Position numbers and translations under genes: made by a program. A stretch of DNA of 64,000 bases. Source: Paraspadella gotoi. Its lineage: Eukaryota; Animalia; Chaetognatha. Of the stretch, positions 7,206-39,418 are shown piece by piece. The stretch spans positions 13,784,813 to 13,848,812 of the forward strand of contig CM119264.1 in assembly GCA_051294375.1 (NCBI GenBank), given 5' to 3'. Under the pieces are notes generated by a model. It saw only the letters and a list, made by a program, of their open reading frames with translations, was not told the DNA's origin and did no database searches. The number at the start of each line of letters is the position of its first letter. The stretch's first letter is position 1.

Positions 7206-7237
<32 letters not shown>

Positions 7238-8114: not shown

Positions 8115-8145
<31 letters not shown>

Positions 8146-8151
8146 CGAGGA

Positions 8152-8201
<50 letters not shown>

Positions 8202-8312
8202 AGAAAGATAAAGAAAGAAAGAGAGAAGTGTAAAGATAAATATATATATATATATATATATGAAATTGGTACAACCAATATAAAAAATTATCCATTCATT
8301 TAATAAATAAGC

Positions 8313-8370
8313 TATCTTGCCCCTGACTTTGGACAGGCTTTGGTGGGGCCTCCATCACCTCTTACAAATA
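8313..8370 (-). ncRNA. Twister ribozyme, family A, defective copy (cleavage-site UAA deleted)
   Basis: Same as 8634-8696 but the + strand TTTAA is missing and there are small indels. Confidence 0.6.
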
Positions 8371-8633
8371 ATGACATAGCAGGTCCCTGCAAGCTTTCAA
8401 TCAAGACTCTCTCACAGTCTCGTTTATTCACTCCCAGAGTACCTGGCCTTCCCTATCAATGAAGTGGAAAATATTTCAAAGAATGTTTCAATTGTATGAA
8501 AAGACCACTCCCTTAAGTATTAGATCGGGGAATACTTATTGTACTCCGCACTAGCATCAAAATACAAGGAGCTGAATTTTATGAAATTGGTAACAACCAA
8601 TATAAAAATTATCCATTCATTTAATAAATTAGC

Positions 8634-8696
8634 TATCTTGCCCCTGACTTTGGACAGGCTTTGGTGGTTTAAGGCCTCCATCACTCTTACAAGATA
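8634..8696 (-). ncRNA. Twister ribozyme (P5-type), family A, intact
   Basis: UAUCUUGU AA GAGU GA UGG AGGCCU U^AA ACC AC CAAAG CCU G U CCA AA GU C AGG G GCAAGAUA. P5 8 bp, P4 CCUG/CAGG, T1 CCA/UGG, T2 AC/GU, catalytic GA and UAA all in twister order. Predicted cut at 8671^8670. Confidence 0.85.
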
Positions 8697-8960
8697 ATGA
8701 CATAGCAGGTCCCTGCAAGCTTTCAATCAAGACTCTCTCACAGTCTCGTTTATTCACTCCCAGAGTACCTGGCTTCCCTATCAATGAAGTGGAAAATATT
8801 TCAAAGAATGTTTCAATTGTATGAAAAGACCACTCCCTTAAGTATTAGATCGGGGAATACTTATTGTACTCCGCACTAGCATCAAAATACAAGGAGCTGA
8901 ATTTTATGAAATTGGTACAAACCAATATAAAAATTATCCATTCATTTAATAAATAAAGCT

Positions 8961-9025
8961 TATCTTGCCCCTGACTTTGGACAGGCTTTGGTGGTTTTAA
9001 AGGCCTCCATCACTCTTACAAGATA
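8961..9025 (-). ncRNA. Twister ribozyme, family A, third unit
   Basis: Identical core with one extra U and one extra A around the cleavage site (possibly homopolymer read error). Confidence 0.75.
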
Positions 9026-9727
9026 ATGACATAGCAGGTCCTATTGTATTTTGAATATAAAGTTCAAAGTTTATGCAAAAGAGTTAAGATCCGACGACGG
9101 CGATAAAGGCGACAAGGAGGACTCAAACAATCAGGTTTGGGTCTCCTCAGGGTAAGTCGACGCGAGGTGAGTTAACGAGGCGCTATTTTTGGTAGGGATT
9201 CTGTGCGTGCCTTCCGAGGCGTCTCTATCGAAGAAAGGAGGAAAAGTGCGAAGAGGAAGAATAAGTGAGAGACGAAAGAAAAATAACGAGCAGGGGTTGA
9301 ATTGGGTAAGTGTCTCCTTTAAAAGCCGGGCGGGCGGATCGCGTCTAAACGGCGGCCCGTCATGGGATAAGTGCCCTTCCAACTCGGGTCGGAGATGAAG
9401 GGCTCTTTCTTCTTCTTTTTTCTCTTGTGTCGCTAACTCGATTTCCGACGACACAGAGAAACATTGACACAAAATGTGAGATAGGAAATACCGAAAAAAT
9501 ATTTTTTCCATTAAACATTAGAAAGTTTTGGAAATCTCATGGAATAGATAGTCCCGAGCAGGATAATATTTCGATAACATTTAATTAACACTTAATTAAC
9601 TCTTAAATGCACAAAATAGAGACTTTTCCATTATAGTAATTTGACGGAGTAAATTCATCCCTTATCAAAAACCACTGAGTTACATCTGCGCTTCTTTTAT
9701 TCATACGTCACCATACCATATGTTAAC

Positions 9728-9909
9728 CAAACAAACAAAAATTCGAGGTTTTCTTTCATTCTTTCTCAAATAATAAAATAGATAAATATTGTGATAATCT
9801 GTCAAGTCTCCTCCGTGTGAATGGAGAATCTTTTCCTTTTTATGAAATTAAAAAATCGAGGAACGTGAAAGTCTTATTTCTGTTCATCGGTTTTTATTGC
9901 TCCATAGAA

Positions 9910-9997
<88 letters not shown>

Positions 9998-10124
9998 CTC
10001 TCTATTTATCAAAAGCTCAACTTTTCCTTCTTCTTCATGCATTCCTATTTCACGCAACTTTTTGCGTTTCTTTTCTTCTCCTTTTCTCATGCGTTTTCCT
10101 CTCTCGTTAAAAATATCTTTTCTC

Positions 10125-10188
<64 letters not shown>

Positions 10189-11903
10189 TTCTCTCTCTCT
10201 CCTCCATCTTTTTTCATATTCTTTTCAACTGATTTATTCATCTCCTTCTTTTCTTTTTTTTTCGTTATTTTTCTAAAACGAAACCGAATATTTTTTTTCC
10301 TTCTTTAGTGTAATCCCGAGTTCTTCTTCCTTTTTATCGGGAGCATTTATTTTTTTCCTTTNNNNNNNNNNNNNNNNNNNNNNNNNCACATATGTTTCAG
10401 TCTGAATATTAGAAAATTTTTTCGTTGACGCTCGATAATGACCAATGCTTCCTTTCACAGTCTTTCACTGTTGAGAAATCCTCTCTCCGATTTTCTTTCC
10501 TCGTTTCAATCTCTTCTAAATTCGTTTTGATCAACGCCAAGACGAACATGGACGTTCTATGCGCCACAAAAAGAAATATCAGTTTTCAACTCTGATTAAA
10601 CATTAAATGACATTTGATTTGAATTCAAGCCTGGGACGGGAAAAAGAGAATGGTTTATCTCAAGTGTTTCGTTAATAATTTGGTTTGTTTTATTCATTAT
10701 ACTATTTTCTTTTTTCTTTAAACTGTATCTCTTCAGTTTTCCACTCTCCTAAGTTTAGCCAAAGTTTTCTCCAATTTTTCTTTTTTTTACTTCAACTATC
10801 CTCAGTTTTCCTCTCATTTTTCTTCTCCCTTATTTTGTTACGCTCCACTCTTTTCATTATCACTTTTTGTTCTTCTTCGCCATCCTCTTGCCCCGATGTT
10901 CAACTTTCTCCTTCGTTCTGCCCCACTTCCTCCCTTCACGTCCATCTTTCAAATCTGCTCATTATCGAGGGTTGATGTGCGGCATTTTCGCGCGAGAATT
11001 TAAAATGGGCGCGCCTCACGACGGTCTTTGTATCGGAAACAGCGGTAACCATGAAACGGGGAGTATAAAGTTAGGGAAGAATAGGAGCGAAGAGGAAGAG
11101 GAGGGAACAAAAAATTGAAGGAAGAAGTAGAATTAGATTGGAGGAAAGAGAAATAAAAATAAGATAGAAAACACGAACTTCCGATAAAAGAATTAGTAGA
11201 TGTTATTCAAGTGATAATTAAAAAACAATAAACACAATTATGCCATCGTCCTTGGTACTTGATCAATACCATTTACTTTTGAAATAAACAAACAAAAAAA
11301 ATTCGAGGTTTCTGTCATTCTTTTCTAAAAATAATAAAATAAGATAAATATTGTATAATCTGTCAAGTCTCCTCCGTGTGAATGAGAAATCTTTTTCTTT
11401 TTAGAAATTAAAAAATCGAGAACGTGAAAGTCTTATTCGTTCATCGGTTTTTATTGCTCCATAGAATCTCTCTCTTCTCTCGTCTCTCTCTCTTCTCTCT
11501 CTTCTCCTCTCTCTCTCTCTCTTCCTCTCTCTCTCTCTCTCTCTCTATTATATACTATTATCAAAAGCTCAACTTTTCCTTCTTCTTCATAGCATTCCTA
11601 TTCCACGCAACTTTTTGCGTTTCTTTTTCTTCTCCTTTTCTCATGCGTTTTCTCCTCTCGTTAAAATATCTTTTTTCTTCCTTCTTCCTCCTCTCTCTCT
11701 CTCTCTCTTCTCTTCTCTCCTCTCTCTCTCTCTCTCCTCTCTCTCCTTACATCTTTTTCACTATTCTTTTCAACTGATCTTTTATCATCTTCCTCTTTTT
11801 CTTTTTTATTCTAAAACGAAACCGATATTTCTTTTTTCTTCTTGAGTGTAATCCGGAGTTCTTCTTCCCTTTCATACGGAGCAATTCTGATTCTTTTTTT
11901 CCT
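9728..11903. repeat. Direct duplication 9728-10361 / 11287-11903 next to the N-gap at 10362-10386
   Basis: Colinear near-identical text with many homopolymer indels. Probably haplotype or assembly redundancy. Confidence 0.8.
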
Positions 11904-12840
11904 TTATAATTTCAAATGTTTATTAAGACGATTAAAACGGTTTAGATTGGAAGAAGTTAGATATCTAGCTCTCCCTCGGCATCGCTCCTCTCACTCTCAA
12001 GTACACCATTATTTGCGAGTTTTATTGGCCGATTGCCAGCTTATCATTAATATAAATTTTTTTTTGCTTTGATACCTAAATTCAGCTATTTTCTTTTCAG
12101 GAAGAATCAGTCCTCGACTCTACAACTCGTAACGGTCGTGTTCACCTATTTGTTTTCTATTAATTTTTGTTGGTCAGCAAAGAATGATAAGGCGATCGAG
12201 CGGATAGTTCAGTTAACAACACAAGAATCTAAGGTTATCATGCCTGTGAGCACTTTCATCACGGAGAAAAATCAATAATCGCGTGAATAGATGCGTAAGC
12301 AAAACACGATATTCCCGCGTCTCAGATTATCGCGTGTGACAAATCTTAAAGTAATATTCGAGTGGGAGCGTAAAAGCGTGGGAAAAAAATGGGCTAAAGG
12401 ACGTTAGAAGGGCTTTCACCTCTTTGTGGCTATAATTTCAATGAGTCAAAATCGTCTGGCTCAACTATATTCTTATCCCATTCTCTGTCCTCATTGTCAT
12501 TAGTATACGTACATTATTACGGATCCTCAAACTCACATCATCAGGTAGTTTTAACGGCCTTCAACTGCTTTTTTGCCAACGTGCATACCGAATTCAAATT
12601 TTTCTCTCTCCTTTTATAAACTCATATCGTGTATTTCTCTCTGACTGAGGCTCTTAACTGTACGCCGATTAGCCCTTAAACATTTTCTCGACTTGGACTC
12701 AATCAAATTTCAAAACGAATTTGTGTCCATCCTTTAAAAAACGAGAAATATCGTTAGATAATGTCATAGCAGAGAAGAGAGAAAGAGTAGAGGGAGAGAA
12801 GAAGAAAGAGAATAATCTCAATGAGGCGAGAGCCGATATT

Positions 12841-15813
12841 TTTAGTCGGGATTGCTTATTCAGCAGTATCTCTCGACTCTATAATCCACTTTCTTATAAA
12901 CTCACTTTTTCCTGGTCCGATCGTCCGCCCCTCAAGCTATTGTTGCCCGGGCACACACTTATATCATGTCAGAACATTCGAATTATGAATAAATTAGTGC
13001 AAAAAAATGATGTCGTGCCGTCCGTCCGTCTGTCGTGTCCGTCCGTCCGTACGTCCGGTCGGTCCGTCCCACCTAGCAAAAACACCAATCTACTCGTGAT
13101 TGGATGGAATGGAATTCTAAATGAAATTTTGTGTGTGGATAGGCTAACGTGGTGTGATGAGCCTGGATATTAAGTTTCGATGGAATCGTCCGATGGAAAT
13201 GAGGTTTTAAATGGGAAAACAAAAAAAAAATATAGTTCACTATTTGAACATCCTAATTCTCATGGAGTGGTTATGGGGCTGATTGGACCCATGGATTTTA
13301 ATGTGGGTAGGAAAGTGGTGTGATTTGCAACATGGAAGTAGTTTCGATGGAATAGTTTAGATGGATAATGAGTTTCAATGGAAAAAAGCAAAAGATAGCC
13401 TGTTTAACTAATTGAGTTATGCTTATCTTGTTTCCTTTTTATATTATTAAATGTATCTGCAAGGATGTATAAATAAATCAATATAATTAATCAGTAATTT
13501 AATCAATTAGTAAATAAATTAATCATAATTATTAATTTAGTCAATCAATCCGTTCCATCCGTCCATCTTAGCAAAAAGCCCAATAATCTCGTGATTGGCT
13601 GGTTGGAATTGGAATTAAATTTTGTGTGTGGGTAGGAAGTGTGTAGATAAAGCTGGATATAAAATTCTCGATGGATATCGTTGTGAGGTGGAAATTAGTT
13701 TAAATGGAAAAACATAAGTCGAATTTACTAAAAATCTTTTTAACTTATGTTTAACCAATAAAAACTGCCATTAATTCAGTAATTGGATGGATAATTGAGT
13801 TGAAATTTTCTGTGTGGGTAGGAAACGTATTGACGAACGTTGATATAAAGTTTCAGTGGAAACGTACCAAGTGGAAATGATTTTAAATGAAAAAAATATG
13901 AGTCACATTTACTTGAATCTTTTTATTTATTTTTAACCCATGAATAGATTGAGATGACAATTTTGTGAGTCCGTAAGGAAAAGTGAGTGAGAAGCTGATA
14001 TAGGAAGGTTTTGACGGAATGCCAGAGTTGAAAAAATGACTGCAAAGTTGAAAAAATGATGCAAGTTAAAAAAATCTTAAAGCATAAGGATCGTTGCTAT
14101 TGCATAAAAGAGAGAGACGAAGAGAGAGACATAGAGAGAGTGAGAGAGAGAGAGAGAGATGAGAGAAGAGAAGTAGAGGAATGTGAGGGAGAGAGGAGGA
14201 GGGGAGAGAAGGAGACATAAAATAAAAAAATCTGTAGAAAGACTCAAGATCGAGCCAGAGCCCACTATCATAGAAATGTAATGAAAAACCGGGAAAAAAG
14301 AACGAATAATCGAATTGCGATAATAACGAATTGTTGAATGTACTAGTAATTGATTGAGGTACAACTAATTGATTGAGTGGTAATAGTAATTTTAATGATG
14401 TAATAGGAATTGATTATTGATTCGCATGAATAATCAATTATTGATGCGATGATAGTCAGTTCAAACTGCTGTGATGATGAGTCATGTCAGTGATCGCGAT
14501 GATTGTCATTCATGATCGAGTGATTGTCATTCATGTGATGCGATGAATAGTCCAATAAAAACACAAATCGTGTAATGATGAAAGAGAAGAGATGAGAGAG
14601 AAGAGAGAGAGAGAGAAGAGATGGAAGAGAGAGAGAGTAGGAGAGTAGAGAGAGAGAAAGGAAAGAAAGAGAAGTTAGAGATGAAGGGCGAAACAAGAGA
14701 CACGTCAACGGGAAAAGTCTCGCGATGAAATATATGGGATTTTTGTATTGAAAAGACGAAGCGCGGAATAAATGGCAATTAATAAAAAGTTTTTTGCAAG
14801 GAAGAAAATAATACAGAATTTTTAAAAACAAACGATCACGAAATGAAAAGATCGACAGATAGGGACAGAACACACACAGAGAGACAGAGAGACAGAGAGA
14901 GACGAGAAGAAAAAAGAGAAGAGAGAGAGAGAGAAGACAGCCGCTGCGAAGAAAGAAAAAGAGAAAGAGGCGATATATAATCAATTAAAAAGAGAGAAAG
15001 CCTAGCAGCCCGCTTTACCTCGTTAAGAATGCAGCAGTAACTTGATGGCAGCCGCACGTAGCGGAGCTATTCTCTACCGAAAGGACCCTGGTTGCGCGCC
15101 CTGTTCGCGGCATTCGTTGTTTACATTAGTGGAAGCCCACATGTTGAATCTAAAAAATTTTTTCTGTAAAAGAAAAAGAGGAGAGAGAGAGAGAGAGGAG
15201 AAGAGAGAGAGAGAGAAAGAAGCTGGACAGTATCGCTGCGAGCGGAACCGTTTTTTAAGAAGAAGCAAGGACGGAGGAAGAAGAGAGAGAGAGAGAGAGC
15301 TGACATATAAATTAAATAGTTTTTGTTTTTGATAAATAGAACAGTAAACAAACATACGCAAATATTGATATGAAACACTGAGAATTTTAAAGATCTGATG
15401 ATTAGAAGCCATGAGGTATGAAAGTTCAACCCCTATGATAGTATACAACTTTCGAAGCATGTTGCAAGAAAAAGGAGCGAGGACCGAAAGCTAAACATAA
15501 AAATTCTAGAAGACAGGCGGGCTTTGCCTACCCTGCTCGATTAAATGAGGATATTTGTTTGTTTTGATTAAAATGTAAACAAAACATTTATAACTGCTCC
15601 TGACTCAATTTTATAAGGAACATCGATGATGGACAAGCTGAATATTAAATTATAATTAATCTATTATATTAATAATTAATTATTATTAATTAATAAATTA
15701 TTTAAAATATTATAAATCTATTATTAATTAAAATTAATCTTATTAATAATATAATAATTAATTAATTATCGTAGGCAGATTCCGTATCTATTTGTTTCTG
15801 CTAAACTGCTGTT
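12841..15813 (+). mobile_element. Non-autonomous Helentron/HINE (DINE-1-like) insertion, possibly composite
   Basis: Absent from the duplicate (empty T-run at 18519-18525), no TSD. 5' hairpin AGTCGGGA..TCTCGACT, inverted subterminal motif CAGCAGT/ACTGCTG, (GTCC)n tract at 13012-13070, degenerate ~165-190 bp internal repeats at 13.1-14.0 kb, 3' hairpin GCAGA..TCTGC. Confidence 0.7.
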
Positions 15814-15844
15814 TCTTTCTTTCTCGTCCAAAAGTAGGAACAAA

Positions 15845-15914
15845 ATGGTTCATCGCCCGGAAGGGGAGAGGCCAGGGTTGTTAACCCAGATTTTTGGTGC
15901 CAATAGAGACAGGG
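15845..15914 (+). CDS. Possible first coding exon (MVHRPEGERPGLLTQIFGANRDR), gene unassigned
   Basis: AAAATGG start context after a pyrimidine tract and AG, strong G|GTAAGT donor. The duplicate at ~18553-18621 has a 1-nt deletion. Confidence 0.3.
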
Positions 15915-16322
15915 GTAAGTGAGACTGAAACTGGGAAGGGAATAATGGGATAGAAAATAAGAGAAACTAACTGAAGTGGTTAAGCTCACTAACGAACGAA
16001 CTAAAATTAAAAGTGAATAAAAATCTGTTAAACACGCTAACGCATCTGTCTAACCCAGCTAACATGTGTCACACTATTTCTTATTTCCGCCACAACTAAT
16101 TAATCATAACTAATTAAGCTTTAAAATTTGAGCCAAGAAACAACTATTTTATTAGTACTGATTGAAAAAAAAAGAAACACATAATGGAGAATTGACATAA
16201 ATGACTTGGATTCGGTTGCCGGTGTCGGATGTGGATTGTCGGCTATCGATTTAGAAATCCGCCACCAGCTGATTATCTTCATTTCCCAGACTCGCGACTG
16301 ACATGACACACTCTCCTCTTTC

Positions 16323-16395
<73 letters not shown>

Positions 16396-16463
16396 GATAT
16401 CAAGGCGTCATAAAACCTTCTCGCCTATCAAAAGACATCCTTTAAAACCAATTTCCATCAATG

Positions 16464-16520
<57 letters not shown>

Positions 16521-19033
16521 CCCCTTCCACATCCATTTTCATTTAAACAAAGAAACCCTTTCTGTCTTCCAAACTGTATTTTCTCTTCGACTCGATCTTA
16601 ATTTCCTTTTCAATTTTCTCGCATTTTCTCCACATGGATTTCACGCTCAATATTTCGATCCATTCTTTTAAAACCCTTTCATTGTCTATGTATATATCAT
16701 TGGTAGCTCATTACCTCAATAACGCATTGGTTTTAACTAAAAATTCGTTCCGATGTCTCCCATAGTTTCTTTCTCCTTCTTCCTTCCTCCTCCTTTCAAC
16801 CTCTTTTTTTATTGCCTCTCGAAATATGAGTCGTTTTTCGTTTTGCATATTTTACAACGCTTTTTCGGTTTTCCCTCTGATTTAAAAATCTTGTTTTCGG
16901 TATTCGCGAAGACGAGGGGAGGCCAGGCGGTCGAAGGCCTTCATTGGTTTCCTTTTTTTTCTTAGATCGACACTGACGTTTGGAATTCGCCTCAGACTTT
17001 CATGAGTCGTAGAAAATCCGCAATTAATGTAATTTTTTTTTCCGGAGAAAATAAATCCGTCCTGATAAAAAAGTTGACCGGAAGAAATCAAACTAAATCA
17101 TGAACACACAAGGGCCGCGATAGAAGTAGGTTGTTGAAAATTGAAGGAACTGAAAAAAAAAACTCAATATGACATTTATTGGCTTAGATTCCGAGCGAAT
17201 AAAAATTAATGGGAGGATTTTAAGAATGAGATTTTTTTTCCTCGACGGAATGAAAATTCCACTGACACAATTTCTCAGTGACAAGTTTTACTGTTAGTTC
17301 CGACCTCATTTTCATCTCCTCCTCCTCCTCCTCCTCCTCCTCTCCCTTTTCTTATCCTCTTCTTCTCTCTCAGTTTCACCTCAAAAAGTACTTCATCCTT
17401 TCTACTCAGATCGCCTCATGGTAATCCTCTCTAATTCTTTCTCATTTTAATCTCTTTTAATCTCGAGGTTATGAATCATTTTTCTTCCTTCGAGTCGCGC
17501 TTTGACCCTCAGACTGAAAGACGGAAGAACGTCGAGGAAAAATGATTAAAAAAAAAAAGAGAAAAAGGATAATGGGAAAGACAAACGAATTGTGGTCTTG
17601 TTCTTCTTAAATGACCCTCTCGGACAGGCTAGCATGGACGAAGAGGATGTTATCTGTATATTGAAAGACGAGACTCCACTTGGCAATTTCATATATTTCA
17701 ATGTTTATATAGACGATTAAACGATTAGATTGAAAGTTAGTATCTAGCTCTCCCTCGCTCTCTCACTCTCAGACACTTATTCGCGAGTTTTATGGCGATT
17801 CCACTATCATTATATATTTTTTTTTGCTTTGATCCTTAAATTAAGCCTATTTTCTCAGGAAGAATCAGTCTCGACCTCAACTCTACTCGTTTCCCTTTTG
17901 TTTCTTAATTTTTGGTCACAAAAATAAGGCGATCGAGCGAAGTTAGTTAACCAAGAATCTAAGGTTATCCCTGTGAGCCTTTTCATCGAGAGAAATAATC
18001 AATCGCGTGAATATCGAAAGCAAAACCGATATTCCGTCTCAGATATCGCGTGTGAAAAATCTTTAAAGAATATCGAGTGCGGAGCGTAAAAGCGTGGGGA
18101 AAATGGCTAAAGATTAAAGAGGGCTTTCCCCTTTTGTGGTCTATAATTTCATAGTCAAAAATCTCATGGTCTCACTATATCTTCCCTTCTGTCCTCCATT
18201 GTCATTAGTATACGTACATTTATTACGGACCTCAAACCACAACCATTCAGTAGTTTAACCCTTCACTGCTTTTTGCCAACTCAACCGAAATTCAATTTTT
18301 CTCTCCTTTTTAACCATTCGTTATTTTCTCTGACTGAAGGCTCTTAACTGTACGCCGATTTAGCCTTAAACATTTCTCGACTTGGACTCAATCAAATTTC
18401 AAAACGAATTTGTTATCCTTTAAAACGAGAAAATCGTTAGAACATTCATAGACAGAAAGAGAGAAAGAGAGAGGGAGAGAAAGAGAAAGAGAATAATCTC
18501 AATGAGGCGAGAGCCATATTTTTTTCTTTCTCGTCCAAAAAGTAGGACAAAAATGGTTCATCGCCCGGAAGGGGAGAGGCCAGGGTTGTTAACCCAGATT
18601 TTGGTGCCAATAGAGACAGGGGTAAGTGAGACTGAAACTGGAAGGGAATAATGGGATAGAAAATAAGAGAAAACTAACTGAAGTGGTTAAGCTCACTAAC
18701 GAACGAACTAAATTTAAAAGTGAATAAAAATCTGTTAAACACGCTAACGCATCTGTCTAACCCAGCTAACATGTGTCACACACTATTTCTTATTTCCGCC
18801 ACAACTAATTAATCATAACTAATTAAGCTTTAAAATTATGAGCCAAGAAACAACTATTTATTAGTACTGATGAAAAAAAAAAAGAAACACATAATGGAGA
18901 ATTGACATAAATGACTTGGATTCGGTTGCCGGGTGTCGGATGTGGATTGTCGGCTATCGATTTAAGAAATACCGCGCCCAACCAGCTGATTATCTTCATT
19001 TCCCAGACTCGCGACTGACATGACACACTCTCT

Positions 19034-19116
<83 letters not shown>

Positions 19117-19185
19117 GATATCAAGCGTCATAAAACCTTCCTCGCCTATCAAGAAGACATCCTTTAAAACCAATTTCCATCAATG

Positions 19186-19239
<54 letters not shown>

Positions 19240-20918
19240 CCTTCCACATCCATTTTCATTTAAACAAAGAAACCCTTTCTGTCTTCCAAACTGTATTTTT
19301 CTCTTCGACTCGATCTTAATTTCCTTTTCAATTTTTCTCCATTTTCCTCCACATAGATTTCACGCTCAATATTTCGATCCATTCTTTTAAACCCTTTCAT
19401 TGTCTATGTATATATCATTGGTAGCTCATTACCTCATAACGCATTGGTTTTAACTAAAAATTCGTTCCGATGTCTCCCATTTAGTTTCTTTCTCCTTCTT
19501 CCTTCCTCCCTCCTTTCAACCTCTTTATTTTATTGCCTCTCGAAATATGAGTCGTTTTTCGTTTTGCATATTTTACAACGCTTTTTCGGTTTTTCCCTCT
19601 GATTTAAAAATCGTGTTTTCGGTATTCGGAAGACGAGGGGAGGCCAGGCGAGTCGAGGCCTTCATTGGTTTCCTTTTTTTTCTTAGATCGACACTGACGT
19701 TTGGAATTCGCCTCAGACTTTCATGAGTCGCAGAAAATCCGCAATTAATGTAATTTTTTTTTCCGGAGAAAATAAATCCGTCCTGATAAAAAAGTTGACC
19801 GGAAGAAAATCAAACTAAATCATGAACACACAAGGGCCGCGATAGAAGTAGGTTGTTGAAAATTGAAGGAACTGAAAAAAAAACTCAATATGACATTTCA
19901 TTGGCTTAGATTCCGAGCGAATAAAAATTAATGGGAGGATTTTAAGAATGAGATTTTTTTTCCTCGACGGAAATGAAAATTCCACTGACACAATTTCTCA
20001 GTGACAAGTTTTACTGTTAGTTCCGACCTCATTTTCATCCTCCTCCTCCTCCTCCTCCTCCTCCTCTCCCTTTTCTTATCCTCTTCTTCTCTCTCAGTTT
20101 CACCTCAAAAAGTCTTCATCTTTCTACTCAGATCGCCTCATGTAATCCTCTCTAATCTCTTTCTCATTTTAATCTCTTTTAATTCTCGAGTTAATGAATC
20201 ATTTTTCTTCCTTCCGAGTCGCTTTGACCCTCAGACTGAAAGGACGGGAAGACGTCGAGGAAAAATGATTAAAAAAAAAAAAGAGAAAAAGGATAATGGG
20301 AAAGACAAACGAATTGTGGTCTTGTTCTTCTTTAAAATGACGCCTCCTCGGACAGCTTAGATGGACGAAAGAGGATTATCTGTATAGAATACAACAACTT
20401 GGCAATAAAAAACTCTACAAACTTTTGTTGAGCTTCGAATTCTTTCAATTTTTTCTTCCTGTTTTTAAGATCTTATCGAATCGAAGAATAGGAAAGTAAC
20501 GTTTGAGCGAAAGAAAGTTTAGCATCCGGTGATGACGGATAAAAACAACAAACGATGTTATTTGAAGAGAGAGAAAGAGAGTGTGTGTGTGTGAGTGTGT
20601 AAAACTCCAACCCCTCACGATATGTGAGAAGTTGGGAGAGTCAACGAGGCTTTGGCAAGCGAAGAGAAAAAATATGGAAATAGAAAGAAGAAAAAAGAAA
20701 TCGGAAACGGATCTCATTTTTGGCGAAGAGATGTCGATGTAGATGTTCCGCCTCGAGAAGGATTTTCGATTCCGGTTTTCATCCTTGGCTTCATCCGGTT
20801 CCATTTCTGGTTCCATCCTTTATCCCACAATCTTGTCTCAAGGTTTTCCCCCTTCTTTTGGTTACTCCTTCGAGACTTTAAAACCGATACTTTAATCCGG
20901 AACGTTGATGATATTATG

Positions 20919-21029: not shown

Positions 21030-21378
21030 AATCGGTGGTCGCCTTGAGTTTTCGCAAAGGGTAAAGGTTTTCTCCAAGTCACGTGATGTAAACAAAAAAC
21101 AGAAGGGGCGCCTTTATCGCTTCCATTAAAACAAAAGCAAATCTTTTTCGACCTCACGTTTCCCCTTTTCGTTTCGGTTCCTCATTACGAAACTTTTTTC
21201 AGGTTTCGAGTTCATTTTTTTCTTCTTACAAATAGGTTTGTGATTGACCGTAAAAGACGATAAATGAATCATGGAGTTAACGTTATTATGTATGCAACAG
21301 ATAAGAGAGAGTGAATTAAATTTCACCGGGGTATTACCGGAGAACAATAGAGTATTCACGATCTCATACTTACATTTG

Positions 21379-21804
21379 TTGAAATATTATATCACTTCAT
21401 TAATATGGAAGCCAGGTACTTAAACAACCAAAGCCTGTCCAAAGTCAGGGGCAAGATAGCTTAATTATTAAATGAATGGATAATTTTTATATTGGTTGTA
21501 TGTACCAATTTCATGAAATTCAGCTCCTTGTATTTTGATGCTGGGCGGAGTACAATATAGTATTTCCCGATCTAATACTTAAGGGAGTGGTCTTTTCATA
21601 CAATTGAAACATTCTTTGAAATAATATATCACTTCATTGATAGGGAAGCCAGGTACTCTGGGAGTGAATAAACGAATCTTGATTGAAAGCTTGCAAGGAT
21701 CTGCAATGTCATTATCTTGTAAGAGTGATGGAGGCCTTAAACCACCAAAGCCTGTCCAAAATCAGGTGCAAGATAACTTATTTATTAAATGAATGGATAA
21801 TTTT
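21379..21804 (+). mobile_element. Family A repeat, ~1.3 units, opposite orientation to the 8.3 kb array
   Basis: Reverse-complement match to the 8581-8905 unit with substitutions and indels. Confidence 0.85.
21713..21775 (+). ncRNA. Twister ribozyme, family A (T2 partner GU mutated to AU)
   Basis: TATCTTGT AA GAGT GA TGG AGGCCT T^AA ACC AC CAAAG CCT G T CCA AA AT C AGG T GCAAGATA. Predicted cut at 21738^21739. Confidence 0.75.
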
Positions 21805-21853
21805 GTTTATTTAAAATTCCTGTTTCTAATTTTATTTATAAACTTTAAGGTAC

Positions 21854-22090
21854 TGTAGTCGGGCATTGCCTAGGTTTATCCCGCCTATAAGCATGACACT
21901 TTCAGTTGTGACCCGGTGGCTCATTGAGTAATGAGTAATGAGTAATGAGTAAAGCTATCAGCTCATTACCACTAGATACCGGGAAGCGTGAGGACGGCTG
22001 TAAGCCGCCTTGGGAGTGTGGCAAACCCTCAAGCCTGGTTCCAAGCCCAGGACCCGTTCCATGGCTGCTAGAGGGGGTTATAGAAGTTCT
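21854..22090 (+). mobile_element. Family B: tRNA-derived SINE-like element with internal twister, copy 1 (B-box region deleted)
   Basis: Colinear with 24809-25035. A-box-like TGGCTCATTGAG at 21917 and a local (TGAGTAA)x4 expansion. Confidence 0.7.
21980..22056 (+). ncRNA. Twister ribozyme (P5-type with P3), family B copy 1
   Basis: CGGG AA GCGT GA GGA CGGCTG T^AA GCC GC [P3 CTTGGG..CTCAAG] CCTG G T TCC AA GC C CAGG A CCCG. T1 TCC/GGA, T2 GC/GC. Predicted cut at 22001^22002. Confidence 0.75.
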
Positions 22091-22618
22091 TGATAATCAT
22101 CTTCAGCCCAGATAGCGCCTTATCCGCAGTATTTTTTTCTTTCCGCCCTTTCATCATCGCGCGCTTCACCTTAACACCCAACGCGCTTTGGAGAATGACG
22201 GTGAAACCTTCTATTTTTCCGCCTTTTCCTTTTTTTCTCCTTTTTTTTTTCTTTTCTTCATCTTCTCTTCCCTCCTTGCCCTTCTCAATGACGGCGGAAA
22301 GGCAAAAAAGGAAGGCGTGTCCTTCTACAGTCAGAGAGACGCGAGTTTTATTGCTTGTTCCTTGTGAAGACAGTTTTAGCGATCGAGCGGAGGTCGGGAG
22401 CTTCAGTGATATGTCGATATGACGAGAAAAACTCGAACAATAAAAAGTGCATCAAATCGCGAGAGACCATGAACTCGGTGCTAATCGTTTCCGAACTCAC
22501 TAAGTTTTTTTTTTTTTTTTGATTGAGGAAACAGGCGAAATAATACACAGTATTCGTCATAAAGATATTTTTTGGTCATTGCAGTCTTTTAATAACCGTA
22601 GGAAAGACCCTCTTCTCT

Positions 22619-22704
<86 letters not shown>

Positions 22705-24119
22705 CATCTCAATCTGGTTTCCATTTCGGAATCTATTCTTGTCTCAACACAAAACTAAATGAAATTAAGACGGAGCACATCGGAATGGATAAATGTGAAG
22801 GAAAGAAAAATTACAATACATAGTGTTGAGAGATTGAATATATAAAAGGGGTGAATGGCAAAAACGATGAAAGTGTTATCAGTCAAACACTAAAAGTTAT
22901 GAAGAACGTTTTAATGATGTTGGATGAAAAAAGAAGATAACATTATCTTTACTACGTTCTATCGATATGAAACAGATGCAGCTTTGTTCAAAGTGACTCA
23001 GCTCGTTATGGAAAACAAAAAAAACCTAACGATGGGGAAGTCAGTGTGGCGTGTAACTCGGCCCTAAATTCAATCCACGTCGCTGGAAAAAAAAAAAGAA
23101 AGAAAAAAAGAAGAATAGATTCTTCGAATTCGCCGCCGAATGGTGGATCATAAAGAGAAACTGTTGTGAATTGAAAGCGGAATGAGAGAAGGGAATGTGA
23201 ATGTAGGATCGATTGAGGCGTGAGACGTGATTTAGAGAGATTGTGAGTCGGTGGCACCGCGAGATGGCGGAACGATTTTTCTTTTCTCCGCTCGGTCGCC
23301 TCGAGCAGTGTGGTGAACAGTGAATAGTCTCACGCGAATCGATTTGTCTGGGAAATACGTTTTTTTTAATATTTTTCTCACGTATAACTTATTCAGTGTT
23401 CACGCGTTTTAGAATAAGGGGTGTGACCTTTCGTCTAACCGCGAACTGGATGTGTCAGTAAGGTTTCGCCCTTTCGCCCTCCGAAGATGGAATTTTAGTT
23501 CGTTTTATGTTTATTCGTGGGCGGTGGCCGAACTAGGACGCTTCGTGGGAAGATCGAGAAGGGTCATTCTAACGCTGATGCGCGTTTATCAGGATCTTTC
23601 TTTCTTTCTGTCTGTTTTTTTTTTTTTTTTTTCTAATCATCATCATCATCATCATCATCGTCATCATCAATCTGGATTTAGTTTCCTCAATAAGCGTTGA
23701 ACGCTCTGCGGCGGCGTTTATCGCTTCGCCGCCACCGCCGCACGCCGCCGCCGCCACGCCGCCGAAAATTCTATTTCGCGACGAACGAGGACTGCGGCGA
23801 TTATTTTTAGAAAATCGCGCGTATCGGGGATGGCGCGTCGATTCGAGCTACAAGCGCATCCCGTGATACCACAGAAATTTACAAGATTTGATCGCACGAA
23901 ATACATTTTTCGGGTTGAAGGCCGAGTTTTTAAGACGCCATTTGGGTATTTTTAACTATTTGTTGCGAGCAGAGACACGCACTAACGCGCATTGGCTGCA
24001 CAGTGCACATGCGTGCGTCCCTTTGAAGGCGCGATTAAAACGCGTCGCCAGCATCGGAGGGCGTGGCGAACGTCGCGCCCGAGACGTGACGCCGAACTCG
24101 TTAGTGCTCTTTCTCTCTC

Positions 24120-24206
<87 letters not shown>

Positions 24207-24808
24207 GTCTCCGACAATAACTTTTTCCATTGTGCGTTTCTCTTTGAAAGTGTGAGTCGATCGCAGGTTTTCATTCTTGTGGTGATTAGCCCGATCCTCA
24301 AGGCCGCTTTTTACCTCCCCCTCTTTCGTCTCCTCTTTTTTCTTTCATTTTCTTTTTTTCCTTTTTTTCTTTTTTCCTCCACTCTTAACTGCCGCCTCCT
24401 CCCACTTTTTCCACTCAACTAATTCAACGTGATTTTACATGTAAAATAGTAAATTAAGATGCGTTAAGTTAATTTTATTAATATTGTTTTGAGTTATTTT
24501 CCTCTCGTTATCACAAAAATATACACTAATGAAAAGCCATCAATTCTAGAAGAAATAGAAGAAAAACGCTGACCAATCTTTTATGAGGAGCTCAAACACC
24601 AGGAGCAACACCCGATGCACCGGCACATAAATCTTTTACGAGATACGGCTCATTTTTTTTCTGCACAATTTTTTTCTTATATTTTTTTTCCTTTTCATAC
24701 GCATTTTACTTCCACTTTGAACTTTGACACTAAGATTTACGGATTCTAGTTTGATACCAAAATATGATAGTAATTGAGACGCACATTGTTATCTAGTATT
24801 AGTAGACT

Positions 24809-25035
24809 TGTAGTCGGGCATGCATATGCATAAGTTCACCCCTTCAGACGTGATCCCCTGGCTCCTCGAGTAAAGCCATGACCACTAGGTACCGGGTTCA
24901 ATCCCAACCCGGTACCTACCCTGCGGAAAGCGTGAGGACGGCCGTAAATCCCCTTGGGTGTCTAGAAAACCCCCAAGCCTGGTTCCAAGCACAGTACCCG
25001 TTCCATGGCTGCTCGAGTGGTTAAAGAAGTTGCGC
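24809..25035 (+). mobile_element. Family B SINE-like element, copy 2
   Basis: A-box-like TGGCTCCTCGAG (24859), B-box GGTTCAATCCC (24895-24905), shared 5' TGTAGTCGGGCAT and 3' CCCGTTCCATGGCTGCT. Confidence 0.7.
24923..25001 (+). ncRNA. Twister ribozyme, family B copy 2, degenerate
   Basis: GCGT GA GGA CGGCCG T^AA ATC CC [CTTGGG..CCCAAG] CCTG G T TCC AA GC A CAG. T2 and the G-C pair closing L4 are mutated. Confidence 0.6.
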
Positions 25036-28929: not shown

Positions 28930-30476
28930 TTCTTAATCTGTCGATATAAATAAGACGAAAATGACGAGGACTGCGACGACGACGACGATCAAGATGACGA
29001 AGACCGCGACGACAACGACGACGACAAAGATGACATCTCGTCCTCTCGCTACATCCGATTTCGAGCAAATCAACTGGGTAGACGAAAATGGAAACGAGGC
29101 TGAAGTGAGAGGGAGGGCAATTACTTGGAACTGACAGACAATGATAGAGCAATGATATCGAAGTGACAAGACAATGATTACAGTGGCGACGATGACAAAA
29201 TCATAACGAATCGTACTATTAAATGTTATCAATTTGTTTAAAAATAAGGTTGGATTAATGTCGCGTTGTTGCTTCACTGTCGAAAGCTAATTCACAAGTG
29301 TTTTAATTTCACTTTGCTACTCGTTCTCTTTTTTTTTGGGTTCGAACTCTTTCCAAACTTTTTTCTTTTTTTTTTCTTTTTTTCTTTTTTTCCCTTTTCC
29401 TTTTTTTCCCCTTTTTTTTCTTTTGGCCCAAAAGTTTTTCCGACGTCACATTAACGTCGCCATTTCCTTTGATGTCCTTTTCGCTTTCCGAGTCTCGAGT
29501 TGGCGGAGACGAAGCCAGAAAACCGAAAAGGCGGAAGGGACTCCATCAAACGATAACAAACGTCAACGACGACAACATCAAGACGATTGGAGAAAGGAAG
29601 ACGACGACTTTTAGAAAACGAGAAAAATCTATCTCTCCAGCAATTTAATCTTTCTGTCAATCTACTTTATCTATTGATCGATTGATTGATTGATTGATGT
29701 TTGATTGATTGATTGATTGATTTTTTTATTTAATTTGATTGTTTGTTTATTTATATATCGCAGTCTATCAAACAAAACAGTTTTAGGTTAGCAGGTTAAA
29801 TGACAACGTTATATTTTCTAAATACAATTGCCATCGACTAAGAAATACTAATATAGCAAAACGAATTTCTTTCTAACAAGTCACAATCGGTTGAATAAAA
29901 CATTAACGAGAAACATCCTCGTTCGAACTCAAACGGAGTTCCCTTCTTAATGAAAGCAAATCGTCTTCTTGGAACAGAAGATAAAAAAGGAATAATAGGA
30001 GAAAATAAATAAGAAAAAGTAGAGAAATCGAAGAAGACAACGACTGAGATTAAGAGGAGAAAGATGAAGTGGATCAGCGAGAGAAGAAGAAAATGAAAAG
30101 AATACATATGTAGTTTTTTTTTGGAATTTAAAATATGATTTCAACTTGATTCTAATAAAAGAAAAAAATTAAAGAAATGTAAACATCAATTTATTTATAA
30201 ACATACTTCAGTTATTGATTAATTGATAATATAATTTCCTTTCTTTTTCGTTGCGTTAATTGATATATTTATTGTTTGATCGATACTTTCTATCATTTTC
30301 TACTTTAATACTATTACTTCTTTAAAAAAATAATATCGCGAGAAAAATGCAGGAGGTATTGAAGAAATTAGCGGAGGCACCAAATAATTCGGTATTCTGA
30401 CACAAATGATTATGCAAGTTTTTTCGAGCACTTGATGATTCTTGATCGTAGTTAAAACAACAATTCTTTGCACGAG

Positions 30477-30554
<78 letters not shown>

Positions 30555-33488
30555 ACTCTCTCGTGCCCAGCTCGTTCTCTCTCGTTCTCTAACTCGCTCT
30601 CTCATCTCCATGGCAATATTTGTGACGCACGTAGAGAGAAATACCAAAACCAAATTCTCTCTGATTTCATCCCAGTTTTTTTTTTTTTTTTTTTTTTTTG
30701 AAGCACGTAAACTTTTCGGTTAACGGACTACGATCTAAAACACTGCAAATTTTCTTTTTTTCGTATGATGCTACAGTTTCTGGACTTTCGAGATGTAAAA
30801 TTTAAGGTAAATAATTTTTTTTTTTCAACTACAAGCACTTGTAAAACTGATAATACTGATAGATTTTACTTTGGTGCATTGAATATTCTATCTATCCTGA
30901 AAAGTGTATAATTATTTTTGATGTACCCTATTTGAGCTCTGACCAATCTGAGTAGTCAAAGGTAAGGCGCTTTGAGCGTCTTTAAAGTAGGTCAGCGACC
31001 GACTTTCGATTGATACCATACTTCATATGTGGAGATTGANNNNNNNNNNNNNNNNNNNNNNNNNTCTTAGATCTGGTCGATATAAATAAGAACGAAATGA
31101 CGAGGATGCGACGACGACGACGATCAGATGACGAAGACGCCGACGACAGACAACCGACAAAGATGACATCTCGTCCTCTCGACTACATCCGATTTCGAGC
31201 AAATAAGGGGGTAGACGAAAATGGAAACGAGGCTGAAGAGAGGAGAGAGGCCAATTACTTGGAACTGACAGACAATGAATAGAGCAATGATATCGAAGTG
31301 ACAAGACAATGATTACAGTGGCGACGATGACAAAATCATAAAGATCGTACTATTAAATATTATCAATATGTTTAAAAATAAGTTGGATTAATGTCGCGTT
31401 GTTGCTTCACTATCGAAAGCTAATCACAAGTGTTTAAATTTCATTTGCTACTCGTTCTCTCTTTTTTTCTTGGTTCGACATCTTCCAAACTTTTTCTTTC
31501 TTTTTTTTTCCTTTTTTCTTTTTTTTCCTTTTCCTTTTTTCCCCTTTTTTTTTTTGTTGCCCAAAAGTTTTTCCGACGTCAACTTAACGTCGCCATTTCC
31601 TTTGATGTCTTTTTCGCTTTTCGAGTCTCGAGTTGGCGGAGACGAAGCCAGAAAACGAAAAGGCGGAAGGGACTCCATCAAAACGATAACAAACGTCAAC
31701 GACGACAACATCAAGACGATTGGAAGAAAGGAAGACGACGACTTTTAGAAAACGAGTAAAATCTATCTCTCCAGCAATTTAATCTTTCTATCATACTACT
31801 TTATCTATTGATCGATTGATTGATTGATTGATTGATGTTTGATTGATTGATTGATTGATTGATTATTTTTTATTTAATTTGATTGTTTGTTTATTTATAT
31901 ATCGCAGTCTATCAAACAAAACAGTTTTAGGTTAGCAGGTTAAATGACAACGTTATATTTTCTAAATACAATTGCCATCGACTAAGAAATACTAATATAG
32001 CAAAAGAATTTCTTCTAACAAGTCACAATCGGTTGAATAAAACATTAACGAGAAACATCTCGTTCGAACTCAAACGGAGTTCCCTTCTTAAGGGGACCCA
32101 GTGATAAAAATGATATCATAAGCTTAAGGGTCTATCATCAAAGGAATTTGAATGGTGATAGTCATTAATTTTTCTTTGCACGGGAAAGTGGCAAAAAAAT
32201 TCCTATCTCTTAATGTAGCGGAAACAAAAATTTTATAATATTGAAAAAAAATTTAGTTGATACTACCTCACTAATATATATATATAATCCATTATTTTTT
32301 TGCATTGAAAGTATTTTTTACTAAATTCCAATTTTTTATTTTTTTACTGTACAAAGCTATAATTTTAGGTTTAAGCCTCATTGAACAAAGGCTTTACAAG
32401 ACTAATATTTTTATATTTTTATATTTACTTAAAAGCAGACAAATCAAACCTAAATTCTATTCTTTACAGAAACAAAACTGTAATAATTATTAATTAATAT
32501 TCATATTCATCCCTTAAATGTATAATTAAACTATATTGATTCCTAATTATAACAATTAAAAATTAGCAAAAGTACAGAATCTTTCTCTTCTTTTTATATT
32601 TATATTACTTCAAAGAGTTTTATTTTCATCCAATTAACGAATCATTTGAAAGAAGTTAAATAAAATCAGTCGATACCAACTTAATTTGTTCATTCCTAGT
32701 TTTTTTTCTTATAAATTTTTGTGATAAAAGCTGAAAATCTTTTTAAAATTAGATCTTACCCTTTTTTTGGAAAAAAAAATTTTAAACTTGAAAAAGATTT
32801 TCTTCTTACCGATTTTTAAAGAAAATTAAGCTCGCTGATTTTATCGAATTTTTTTAACTACTTTCCCAAATGATTATAGAAGAAAAAATTATATGATCAG
32901 AACCAGCTTAAGTTAAAGGGTCAAACGTTATGTTTTCAGCTTTTTACCCCCCTGTTCACTTGGTCCCTCTTATGAAGCAAATCGTCTTCTTGAACAGAAG
33001 ATAAAAAAGGAATAATAGGAGAAAATAAATAAAGAAAAAGTAGAGAAATCGAAGAAGACAACGACTGAGATTAAGAGGAGAAGAATGAAGTGGATCAGGC
33101 GAAGAAGAAAGAAAATGAAGAATACATATGTAGTTGTTTTTTGGAATTTAAAATATGATTTCAACTTGATTCTAATAAAGAAAAAATTAAAGAAATGTAA
33201 ACATCAATTTATTTATAACTTACTTCAGTTATTGATTAATTGATAATATAATTTCCTTTCTTTTTCGTTGCGTTAATTAATATATTTATTGTTGATCGAT
33301 ACTTTCTATCATTTTTCTATTTATACTATTACTTCTCTTTAAAAAAAAAATATCTGAGAAAATCAGGTATTGGGAAGAATTAGCGAGCACCAAATAATTC
33401 GGTATTCTGACACAAATGATTATGCAAGTTTTTTCGAGCACTTGATGAATTCTTGATCGTAATTAAAACAAACAATTCTTTGCACGAG

Positions 33489-33549
<61 letters not shown>

Positions 33550-34034
33550 TTCTTACTCTCTCGTGCCCAGCTCGTTCTCTCGTTCTCTAACTCGCTCTCT
33601 CATCTCCATGGCAATATTTGTGACGCACGTAGAGAGAAATACGAAACCAAATTCTCTCTGATTTCATCCCAGTTTTTTTTTTTTTTTTTTTTTTTGAAAG
33701 CACGTAAACTTTTCGGTTAACGGACTACGATCTAAAACACTGCAAATTCTCTTTTTTTTCGTATGATGCTACAGTTTCTGGACTTTCGAGATGTAAAATT
33801 TAAGGTAAATAATTTTTTTTTCAACTACAAGCACTTGTAAAACTGATAATACTGATGATTTTCTTTGGTGCATTGAATACTTCTATCTATCCTGAAAGGT
33901 GTATAAATTATTTTTGATGTACCCCTATTGAGCTCTGACCAATCTGAGTAGTCAAAGGTAAGGCGCTTTGAGCGTCTTTAAAGTAGGTCAGCGACCGACT
34001 TTCGACATGTACCATACTTCATATGTGGAGATTG
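28930..34034. repeat. Direct duplication 28930-31039 / 31065-34034 across the N-gap at 31040-31064
   Basis: Colinear near-identical sequence. The second copy has an 878-bp insertion. Confidence 0.85.
32092..32969. mobile_element. Non-autonomous TIR transposon (MITE) in a TTAA site, Kolobok-like
   Basis: Empty site CCCTTCTTAATGAAAGC at 29941. Filled site TTAA|GGGGACCCAGTGA ... TCACTTGGTCCCTC|TTA. Purine-start termini with a TTAA target fit Kolobok better than piggyBac. AT-rich interior with no transposase. Confidence 0.75.
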
Positions 34035-34047
34035 AAAGATGGAGATT

Positions 34048-36967: not shown

Positions 36968-37248
36968 GTAAATGGGTAAATGGGTAAATGGTAAATGGGT
37001 AAATGGGTAAATGGAAGGGCTTATAAGGAATAAATGGAATCAATAGATTTAATACCGAGGATAATGCTTGGATTTGGCGGCACGCGGGAAATGGGGAGAA
37101 AGGATAGAATGGATTCGGTCGCGGGGGAAAAAGGTTGGATGAGAATGGAGAAGAAAAAGGAGAGAGAATGGCGATATACGAGTTTTGGGATGGGGAGTAG
37201 AATCCAGGCCCTCCTCAGAGAAAGAGAGAGAGATAGAAGAGAGAGAGA

Positions 37249-37298
<50 letters not shown>

Positions 37299-39333
37299 GC
37301 ATAATTTCATGACATGGTTTGCATGAGCCGACAGGCTTTCATTTTCTTGAAACACTAAAGTATCTCGAAAACAGCAAGATGCCATAAAAACTTTCAAACC
37401 GTCACGGTACGAAAAGTGAAAAAAATTATTCTGTCCAAAAATTGAAAGGAAGTTGCCCATTTTCTGAAATCAAAGCCGATCCAAATACGAAATGTCAAAG
37501 CGACAATCTTTTTACGAGAAAACCGGAAGTCGGTGAAATTAGTGGTGAGGTTTGTGTGAGAAAGAAATTTCATCATTCGAATGGCGGGTACAAATGGAAA
37601 ACCGAAAATTTGAGAAATTTTTAATCTTGCCTTGGCTCACGACATCAAATTTTAATGGCGATATGCATCTGAACGGGAATGGGTCTCATGCAGCAAGACT
37701 CAATTTTTTTCTGGCACTCGTTTCCCGTTGCGCGAATGACACCCCAAAAATATTTAATATACTTTTAAAAATCTGATGAAGTTAATTCATTAGTACATCA
37801 TTAGTAAGAGAACTAACGGACATTGATAGAATTGTTTTTCGATTAAATTTGCTATGAAATCATAACTGACGGCAATAAATTAAAAAGGCGGCCTCATCAC
37901 ACGCAACGACGAAATAAAAAAACGACCAAGAACACAAACACCAGAGAAAAAAAATGCGGATAAAATGCGGAGAAAATGCATTAAAATTCGAAAAATGTCG
38001 CATGAGACGAAATTCGCGATTTGCGCTGATGACAATTGACGGAAACAAATTCGATAAAATCCAAGGTTTACATCACGCAAATCATCGACGACGATGACGA
38101 CGACACACGACGACGCTATCCATCAAATCTTAGTTTATAAGCCGGAAACGTTCTTTGCATCCCACTAACCCCTACCCCCCAGATTTTGCTGCCTCTCCCC
38201 CCTATTTCGCACAAAAATCGGCGGGTAAACATAGTCCAACGGCGACGTTTGACGTCGACGGCGACGACCGACGATGACGACGAGAAGCTCCTAAAGTCGA
38301 AAACGTCTCCATTAAACGAAGATAATAGATCATCTTTTTAGCACTTGAGATATGGATTGGAATCCACGGACTAACGAAGGGAAGCGACAGACGACGACGA
38401 CGACACGTCAACATCCGAAACGCTTCTTCCGCGCAGACCTATCCGATCACTGCCTTTTTTTGCTTGGTTTCACTTGGTGTGTTCTGGCCTCTCTCTCTCT
38501 CCTCCTCATCTCTCTCCCTCTCTCCCACGTTAAAAAAATGTTCCTTTCGCCCTCATGGACATTTGAAAAGGTCGCCGTCACGTGACGGCATTGAACCGTA
38601 TCCGAATCGGGATCGCCTCGTCCCGCCATCGGCTCGATCCGGCTTCCGGAGAAAGAGCGGAAGAGAAATGCGACGCGGAAGTGGGGAGGCGAGGGCTGAG
38701 GTGGGGGGCGGAGGGAGCGGAGGACAGCAGTTGGCTCCATCGAGATCCTCTTTCGATTGGAGCAACGGAAAATGGCGAGACGGAAAGAATGAGGGAAAAA
38801 AAAGGGCAAAAGATTGCGCGACACTAATAGCCGAGAGTTTAACGAGGACAATAACCTAAACACATCACACCAACTTGTTTACTACTATCCAATTGATTCA
38901 ACTTAGGAATCCAATATCAATAAGACAAAACGGCAGGCTACAGCTACGACAACGTGGCCAGGGCGGCAGCGGTGGGCAGCCGCGCGGAATTCAATATCAA
39001 TAGAACGGCGTCTGTATTTTTCTATTTCGTTTTTGATAAAAATCTTCCGAATTTCGTTCTCCTGTTTTTTCTTTTGCCTCCACAAATATTGCGGTTTTTT
39101 TTCTTTTTTTTCCATTCTCTATTTTTCGGCATGTAATGTGCCGCCTTTTCTCATTTTTTTTTCACCATCACCCCCGCGAGGGGGCGATTCCTCATTCGAA
39201 GCCTCGAGTTCCTTTTCGTTCTTTTTTTTTCAAATTTCGGTTTTTGAAAAAAAGTGTTTTCTGAGTCCGAATGATTTATTTTCCTCCCACCCTTGCGCGA
39301 CGTCTCTCTCTCTTCGTCTCTCTCTCTCTCTCT

Positions 39334-39418
<85 letters not shown>

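Follow-up and report, generated by a model that had tools for sequence, protein, structure and literature searches.

The 64,000-nt stretch of the chaetognath Paraspadella gotoi analysed here (the window; assembly GCA_051294375.1, contig CM119264.1, positions 13,784,813 to 13,848,812, forward strand) contains two copies of a short repeat in which a tRNA-like head is followed by a predicted type-P5 twister ribozyme and a tail. Both lie on the + strand and start at 21854 (copy 1) and 24809 (copy 2) in window coordinates (Table 1), where the 13-mer TGTAGTCGGGCAT is present exactly in each. Their cores are 85% identical over 109 nt (E 3e-30), and no third copy was found in the 64 kb. A first-pass annotation made from the letters alone had described two diverged copies of an element similar to a short interspersed nuclear element (SINE), with a twister behind its RNA polymerase III (Pol III) promoter; the two copies are borne out, and its interpretation as a whole is partly supported. 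What lies here is a real, abundant element that unites known parts in an order we did not find described in the open-access literature searched.

Family-level data came from short-read contigs of 6 out of 9 listed runs, which belong to 3 studies. In four runs the summed depth of core contigs exceeded that of single-locus contigs by a factor of ~2,400-16,000, a ratio that does not equal copy number and was taken only as an order of magnitude; the repeat is likely a dispersed, roughly 275-nt family of ~10^3-10^4 copies. Its 5′ boundary is sharp: contig depth climbs at 21854, the TGT at the 5′ terminus is constant across contigs, and the DNA preceding it is mutually unrelated and mostly AT-rich in sets of 102, 70, 35 and 61 contigs (agreement 0.39-0.42). 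The shared sequence ahead of the tRNA-like head, correctly noted before at ~55 nt, forms a leader of 56 nt (copy 1) or 43 nt (copy 2), counted to tRNA position 1. Leader depth was 0.94-1.36 times core depth in four runs, and there is therefore no 5′-truncation gradient. The 3′ end of the unit is approximate, near 22125-22130. Depth falls to background inside the bin 22122-22135, family matches cease at 22124-22125, and among the eight contigs listed that match up to this point, six end 2-5 letters further on and two enter other DNA. The start first proposed for copy 1 holds, whereas its end moves from 22090 to about 22128. Tail depth was 0.34-0.41 of core depth, a figure depressed by the divergence of copy 1, and the last letters of the family seem unlike copy 1 beyond 22125. 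The family has no A-rich or simple-repeat tail; an A-run behind copy 2 falls past the truncation of that copy. At least two tail variants occur in the contigs (22069-22096; 25013), and the family therefore has subfamilies. A GTAGTC stretch in a tail variant was considered as a tail-to-leader junction and rejected, as it aligns 8/10 with ordinary tail.

These boundaries bear on two labels that the element had received. A tRNA-derived SINE (SINE2) has its 5′ end at the tRNA head, whereas this element carries its 56-nt leader at core depth; a Pol III RNA copied by target-primed reverse transcription cannot yield a fixed leader of that length upstream of its promoter and, with the tail neither A-rich nor a simple repeat, the SINE label is unsupported. 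A circularly permuted unit, whose tail would run on into the leader in longer copies, finds no support either: unrelated DNA precedes the start of the element at 21854, leader depth matches that of the core, and the tail stops at ~22125-22128. No tail-to-leader joint was present among the 15 of 74 joints and 24 of 763 loose ends listed, in short-read contigs that may conceal high-copy junctions, and the same loose ends showed no cluster at the cut-site position 22002. In one contig set, 2 of 11 joints lead back to an earlier position, and three contigs of single-locus depth carry a second copy downstream.

A tRNA-derived promoter directly ahead of the twister is supported by sequence motifs and their spacing. 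The B box of copy 2, GGTTCAATCCC, is the only strict B box on either strand of the 64 kb, and the same copy holds the only TRGCY..B-box arrangement, in agreement with the A-box-like motif and B box reported initially. Copy 1 has lost ~30 nt including its B box and gained three extra TGAGTAA units. After discounting 21 extra nt, 45 nt separate tRNA positions 8 and 53 in this copy, which is the standard spacing in tRNAs; copy 2 has 8 nt fewer between its boxes, letters that do occur in contigs. An anticodon-loop-like and a variable-loop-like stretch are also present in the head of copy 1. The stems of the tRNA-like heads are decayed, neither ARAGORN nor Rfam called a tRNA, lowered ARAGORN thresholds gave only off-register calls, and the head of copy 2 had no Rfam tRNA match. 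A run of four T (T4 terminator) is absent from both copies. From the boxes we infer that the head may be active as a Pol III promoter. In copy 2 the B box lies in the loop of a 13-bp perfect hairpin (24886-24918) that replaces the tRNA T arm, and the deletion in copy 1 falls between two CGGG words bracketing the site of that hairpin.

Twisters were searched with a type-P5 descriptor that required both pseudoknots and was composed after the sequence had been read. A stricter earlier descriptor recovered none of the control twisters; the loosened version used here recovers 4 of 6 that are Rfam-verified. It matched copy 1 (21986-22051) and one further site in the window, with a background of 19 matches in 200 shuffled windows and 0 in 5000 shuffles of copy 1. 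In this copy P5, P2, P1, P3, P4 and the pseudoknots T1 and T2 all pair, the two pseudoknots with 4/4 G-C pairs; P1 comprises 2 bp and P2 3 bp with a bulge. The GA motif with the T1 strand, the U/AA cut site, P2, P4 and an 8-nt L4 follow one another in P5 order, and the cut is predicted between U22001 and A22002. The catalytic G and A presumably occupy the corresponding positions in this twister. The G/A mechanism of twisters is stated in PMC6765202.

A twister had been claimed behind the promoter of both copies, and this holds for copy 1 but not for copy 2, where T2 contains a C-C opposition, P4 two mismatches and P5 one. At these broken positions the majority of the read depth has the letters of copy 1, and between 21980 and 22062 differences exceeding 10% are confined to the P1 loop and upper P3. 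Copy 2 has kept its B box but carries a broken twister, and copy 1 has kept its twister but lost the B box. Compared with the Rfam family RF02684, the twister of the element shares the strand order, GA-T1 motif, UAA cut site, P2, P4, 8-nt L4 and both pseudoknots, but its P1 consists of 2 bp closing a palindromic GGCC-type loop where the Rfam family has a 7-9 bp hairpin, its P2 is bulged and its P3 is long. An Rfam scan of the window gave no match reaching the gathering score, and none at all for the twister of copy 2. Folding z-scores were unremarkable (-2.1 and -1.9 for the whole copies; -0.2, +1.2 and -0.5 for three twisters alone), and a MAFFT alignment of the twisters, which misregistered P3, was not used. 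We predict that a type-P5 twister capable of self-cleavage is present in the element; thousands of predicted twisters would then escape the cut-off of Rfam.

Outside the genome, metagenome contigs yielded 0 matches to the twister pattern specific to the family. A looser pattern of B box plus twister hit 3 viral and 47 metagenome loci, none of which matched the element by blastn; five of eight rescanned loci of this pattern held Rfam-grade P5 twisters (6 matches), which served as controls. One metagenome contig (L048) carries type-P5 twisters at 265-320 and 1045-1101, 780 nt apart.

A second repeat family in the window (Table 1), with a ~325-nt unit of 38% GC, contains a P5 twister of the same build, in which one T1 pair and one T2 pair are altered on both sides. 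In both families P1 consists of two pairs on a GGCC loop, and the P1 segment is therefore self-complementary; the GGCT loop variant is unique to copy 1, and >99% of the read depth differs from it. Palindromes of 8 nt like that of copy 2 make up 0.7% of the 8-mers of the window. Strand-swapped dimers, whose structure is nested, exceeded two active monomers in stability by 14.5, 18.9 and 20.3 kcal/mol. In unconstrained co-folds the swapped P1 formed for copy 2 and for the second family, not for copy 1. In amphibian retrozymes, hammerheads whose weak stem carries a palindromic tetraloop act as dimers (PMC7229834); they belong to a ribozyme class other than the twister of the element. The palindromic P1 of both families suggests that these twisters may be dimeric as well. 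No natural dimeric twister was described among the matches listed from the open-access literature (best 20 of 57), and the palindrome makes one simple to test at the bench.

In Helenus long terminal repeats (LTRs), too, an internal tRNA promoter lies behind an invariant TGT start. Copy 1 also runs from TGT to CA and sits between GTAC and GTAT, a possible 4-bp target duplication. We therefore read both copies as decayed solo LTRs of a miniature non-autonomous LTR retrotransposon, Helenus-like and working like a plant LTR retrozyme, a reading that we judge to have about an even chance of being right. Helenus LTRs have tRNA-like boxes, 4-bp duplications in animals and solo LTRs (PMC10886601), and Helenus and TRIMp3 elements share with the present one the A and B boxes (TRGCY, GGTTC) in a short unit, a leader starting with TGT and a decayed cloverleaf. 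Closest in build are the gall-wasp LTRs Helenus-2_SyJa and Helenus-2_SyUm, which are 277 nt long (275 nt here), have a ribozyme core directly behind the boxes and lack a T4 run (by eye). Theirs is a type III hammerhead with complementary loops, also recognised by eye, whereas ours is a twister. Both are flanked by 4-bp duplications, and a tRNA-Trp primer site is given for SyJa (PMC10886601 supplement). The available part of the Helenus main text makes no mention of a ribozyme. Short-motif searches found no twister-like L4 motif in the available Helenus sequences, in which line breaks could mask matches. The tail of the two wasp LTRs agrees with 22111-22128 in 13 of 18 letters, a weak match that was noticed post hoc.

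In plant LTR retrozymes, likewise, the ribozyme lies in a repeat the size of an LTR, and the promoter precedes the cut (PMC4918200, PMC9695139). These retrozymes leave solo LTRs and 4-bp duplications, and the circularisation modelled for their cycle (PMC4918200) answers the loss of a promoter that lies upstream of the ribozyme in the LTR (PMC9695139). They differ from the element in having type III hammerheads and LTRs of 300-400 nt, with no tRNA-derived promoter described in the parts available. A twister in place of the hammerhead lowers the likelihood of membership in the plant-type LTR retrozymes but not the value of the working analogy.

The first-pass annotation had seen that self-cleavage would cut the promoter off a monomer transcript and that propagation would thus probably require tandem or circular intermediates; a two-ribozyme precursor is indeed logically required. 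In the LTR cycle that we propose, the source element would have had two LTRs, each with a tRNA-type promoter followed by a twister. Transcription by Pol III would begin in the tRNA-like head of the first LTR and, as the unit has no T4 stop, would run through it. Both twisters would then cut, possibly as a strand-swapped dimer via the palindromic P1, and set free a unit-length RNA whose 3′ end carries the second LTR's promoter. This RNA would be circularised by a host ligase. Reverse transcriptase and integrase of Gypsy type would restore two LTRs from the circle by tRNA-primed copying and then insert the product, along the lines modelled for plant LTR retrozymes (PMC4918200). Recombination or short complementary DNAs would leave the solo LTRs. 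Such a two-LTR cycle would retain the second promoter and thus solve the promoter-loss paradox without a permuted unit.

Several observations weigh against the LTR reading or its ribozyme. Neither the window nor the contig tables showed an internal segment, a primer-binding site or a polypurine tract, and the loose-end letters before 21854 showed no purine tract, which leaves membership of Helenus or of the LTR retrozymes unproven. The GTAC/GTAT flanks of copy 1 agree in 3 of 4 letters, with a chance expectation of 7%. Its terminal CA has been seen in this one copy, as the family seems to diverge after 22125, and the YGG of box A, present in most Helenus LTRs, is absent from the element. One two-copy contig (X7) has a period of at most ~268 nt if it is paired with the joint of the same depth (24.1); this leaves no room for an internal segment and suits a tandem or a rearrangement, not an LTR pair. 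Regarding the ribozyme, the Rfam Twister-P5 model scored copy 1 at 17.8 bits, in the wrong register, against a gathering score of 37.6 for RF02684. The nested part of the active fold of copy 1 (-14.1 kcal/mol, pseudoknots unscored) is surpassed in stability by a competing hairpin (-27.2 kcal/mol), which persists in the co-fold, whereas five of five bacterial or phage control P5 twisters fold as expected alone. We rejected copies 1 and 2 as the LTR pair of a single element, given the 2.7 kb that separates them, their divergence and the lack of a primer site or purine tract in between.

Among other explanations, the schistosome element Sm-alpha provides a precedent for the order of parts, with a tRNA-derived Pol III promoter, then a self-cleaving ribozyme, in ~10^4 copies (PMC6765202, PMC2770079). 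The present family could similarly be a SINE-like non-LTR retrozyme, in which an upstream promoter in a head-to-tail source array transcribes the next unit, twisters free the monomers, and an enzyme of long interspersed nuclear element (LINE) or Penelope type inserts them. The three contigs with a second copy downstream (one with the short period given above) fit this account, as does the tandem twister repeat of another family in the same window, and the palindromic P1 would suit tandem units equally well as two LTRs. Sm-alpha itself, however, has a hammerhead and is tandem by description, while the copies here are dispersed, with a twister and a fixed 5′ end upstream of the promoter. A precise 5′ end at 21854 behind unrelated flanks, with the leader at full depth, speaks against a ribozyme-released monomer, because such a monomer should begin at the cut site or raggedly. 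Together with the lack of a tail-to-leader joint among those listed and of an A-rich or simple-repeat tail, this makes the account rather unlikely in our view.

Alternatively, the twister could be a passenger, poorly folding or dead, in an element that spreads as an ordinary Pol III-driven terminal-repeat retrotransposon in miniature (TRIM) or SINE-like unit without cleavage or circles. An uncut transcript would avoid the promoter-loss problem, the competing hairpin is favoured by 13 kcal/mol, P1 and the bulged P2 are short (2 and 3 bp), and the Rfam score is far under the cut-off. Nevertheless, the core letters and both pseudoknots are retained in copy 1 and in the majority of the read depth, the same build recurs with compensatory changes in the second family, and the unit has no T4 terminator, while in most of the Helenus LTRs inspected a T-run directly follows the tRNA-like part (by eye); we regard a mere passenger as improbable. 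Lowest in our estimation, and very unlikely, is a non-autonomous Penelope-like or RTE-type derivative with the twister marking the end of the RNA and a tRNA part acquired at a later stage. Twisters do head Perere-3/RTE elements (PMC8501958; PMC7761336), and animal retrozymes have been linked to Penelope-like elements (10.64898/2026.07.22.740005). The T-variant of RTE/Perere-3 starts at the twister cut site, however, whereas our element starts 148 nt upstream of it. As its 5′ end differs from the cut site, the element is not a LINE 5′ fragment, the alternative that had been named at the outset. Partial tandems and inverted arms are absent from both copies, no coding sequence lies downstream, the unit ends near 22128, and the listed loose ends do not gather at 22002.

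Returning to the solo-LTR reading, we put forward a bolder version that we consider doubtful as a whole: an animal LTR retrozyme driven by Pol III, in which an obligately dimeric twister replaces the terminator, and which would form, with the hammerhead-bearing wasp Helenus LTRs, a wider unrecognised class with interchangeable ribozymes. Because the two ribozymes would swap strands through the palindromic P1, cutting would occur only once both LTRs had been transcribed, and the RNA circle set free would retain the promoter. A review assigns LTR retrozymes to plants and non-LTR retrozymes, with hammerheads only, to animals, and describes retrozymes as seemingly promoterless (PMC7761336). Among the matches listed from the open-access literature, we found neither a tRNA-promoter element with a twister nor an animal LTR retrozyme. 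If true, an animal element uniting a Pol III promoter, a twister and LTR-type ends would link TRIMp3 elements with retrozymes; it would also assign one kind of eukaryotic twister a concrete function and account for the position of a ribozyme right behind its own promoter.

Table 1. Features of the twister-bearing repeats in the window (window coordinates).
Feature	Position	Strand	Basis or remark
Copy 1, whole unit, 275 nt, TGT...CA	21854..22128	+	5′ boundary sharp, 3′ approximate
Candidate 4-bp target duplication, left half GTAC	21850..21853	+	3/4 match, background 7%
Leader ahead of tRNA-like head, 56 nt; U3-like under the LTR reading	21854..21909	+	depth comparable to core
tRNA-like head, copy 1; A box from 21917, B box deleted	21910..21983	+	box search and read-through of letters
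TGAGTAA array, copy 1 (three extra units)	21925-21952	+	inside tRNA-like head
Predicted type-P5 twister, copy 1, every pairing intact	21980..22056	+	descriptor and pairing check
Near-palindromic P1 segment, copy 1	21994-22001	+	within twister
Tail, copy 1; first part base-pairs back to head region	22057..22128	+	folding and contig depth
Candidate 4-bp target duplication, right half GTAT	22129..22132	+	weak
Copy 2, more diverged, 3′ end truncated	24809..25034	+	contig comparison
tRNA-like head, copy 2; A box from 24859, B box 24895-24905	24852..24915	+	box search
Damaged type-P5 twister, copy 2; cut-site position 24945/24946	24924..25000	+	descriptor and pairing check
Exact 8-nt palindrome, P1 of copy 2	24938-24945	+	within damaged twister
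Second family, 2.4 tandem units	8259..9041	-	self-comparison
Second-family twister, intact	8643-8686	-	compensatory T1 and T2 pairs, descriptor
Second family, partial tandem	21372..21811	+	~325-nt unit
Second-family P5 twister, T2 broken in this copy	21723-21767	+	descriptor
Second-family fragment	55187-55261		self-comparison

The second family looks like a non-LTR retrozyme that would use a twister in place of the hammerhead, and its motif had 0 matches in viral contigs. Elsewhere in the window, long near-duplicate blocks of 80-95% identity (9724-12843, 15812-20386, 28931-34035 and 36976-42412) together with 85 N suggest a redundant or error-prone assembly. An inverted repeat of 250 nt (57812-58061) is 79% self-complementary. 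The window also contains intron-broken pieces of a PDZ gene and, at 54300-56000 on the - strand, an intron-broken GST-like gene that is 35-39% identical to its two nearest proteins.

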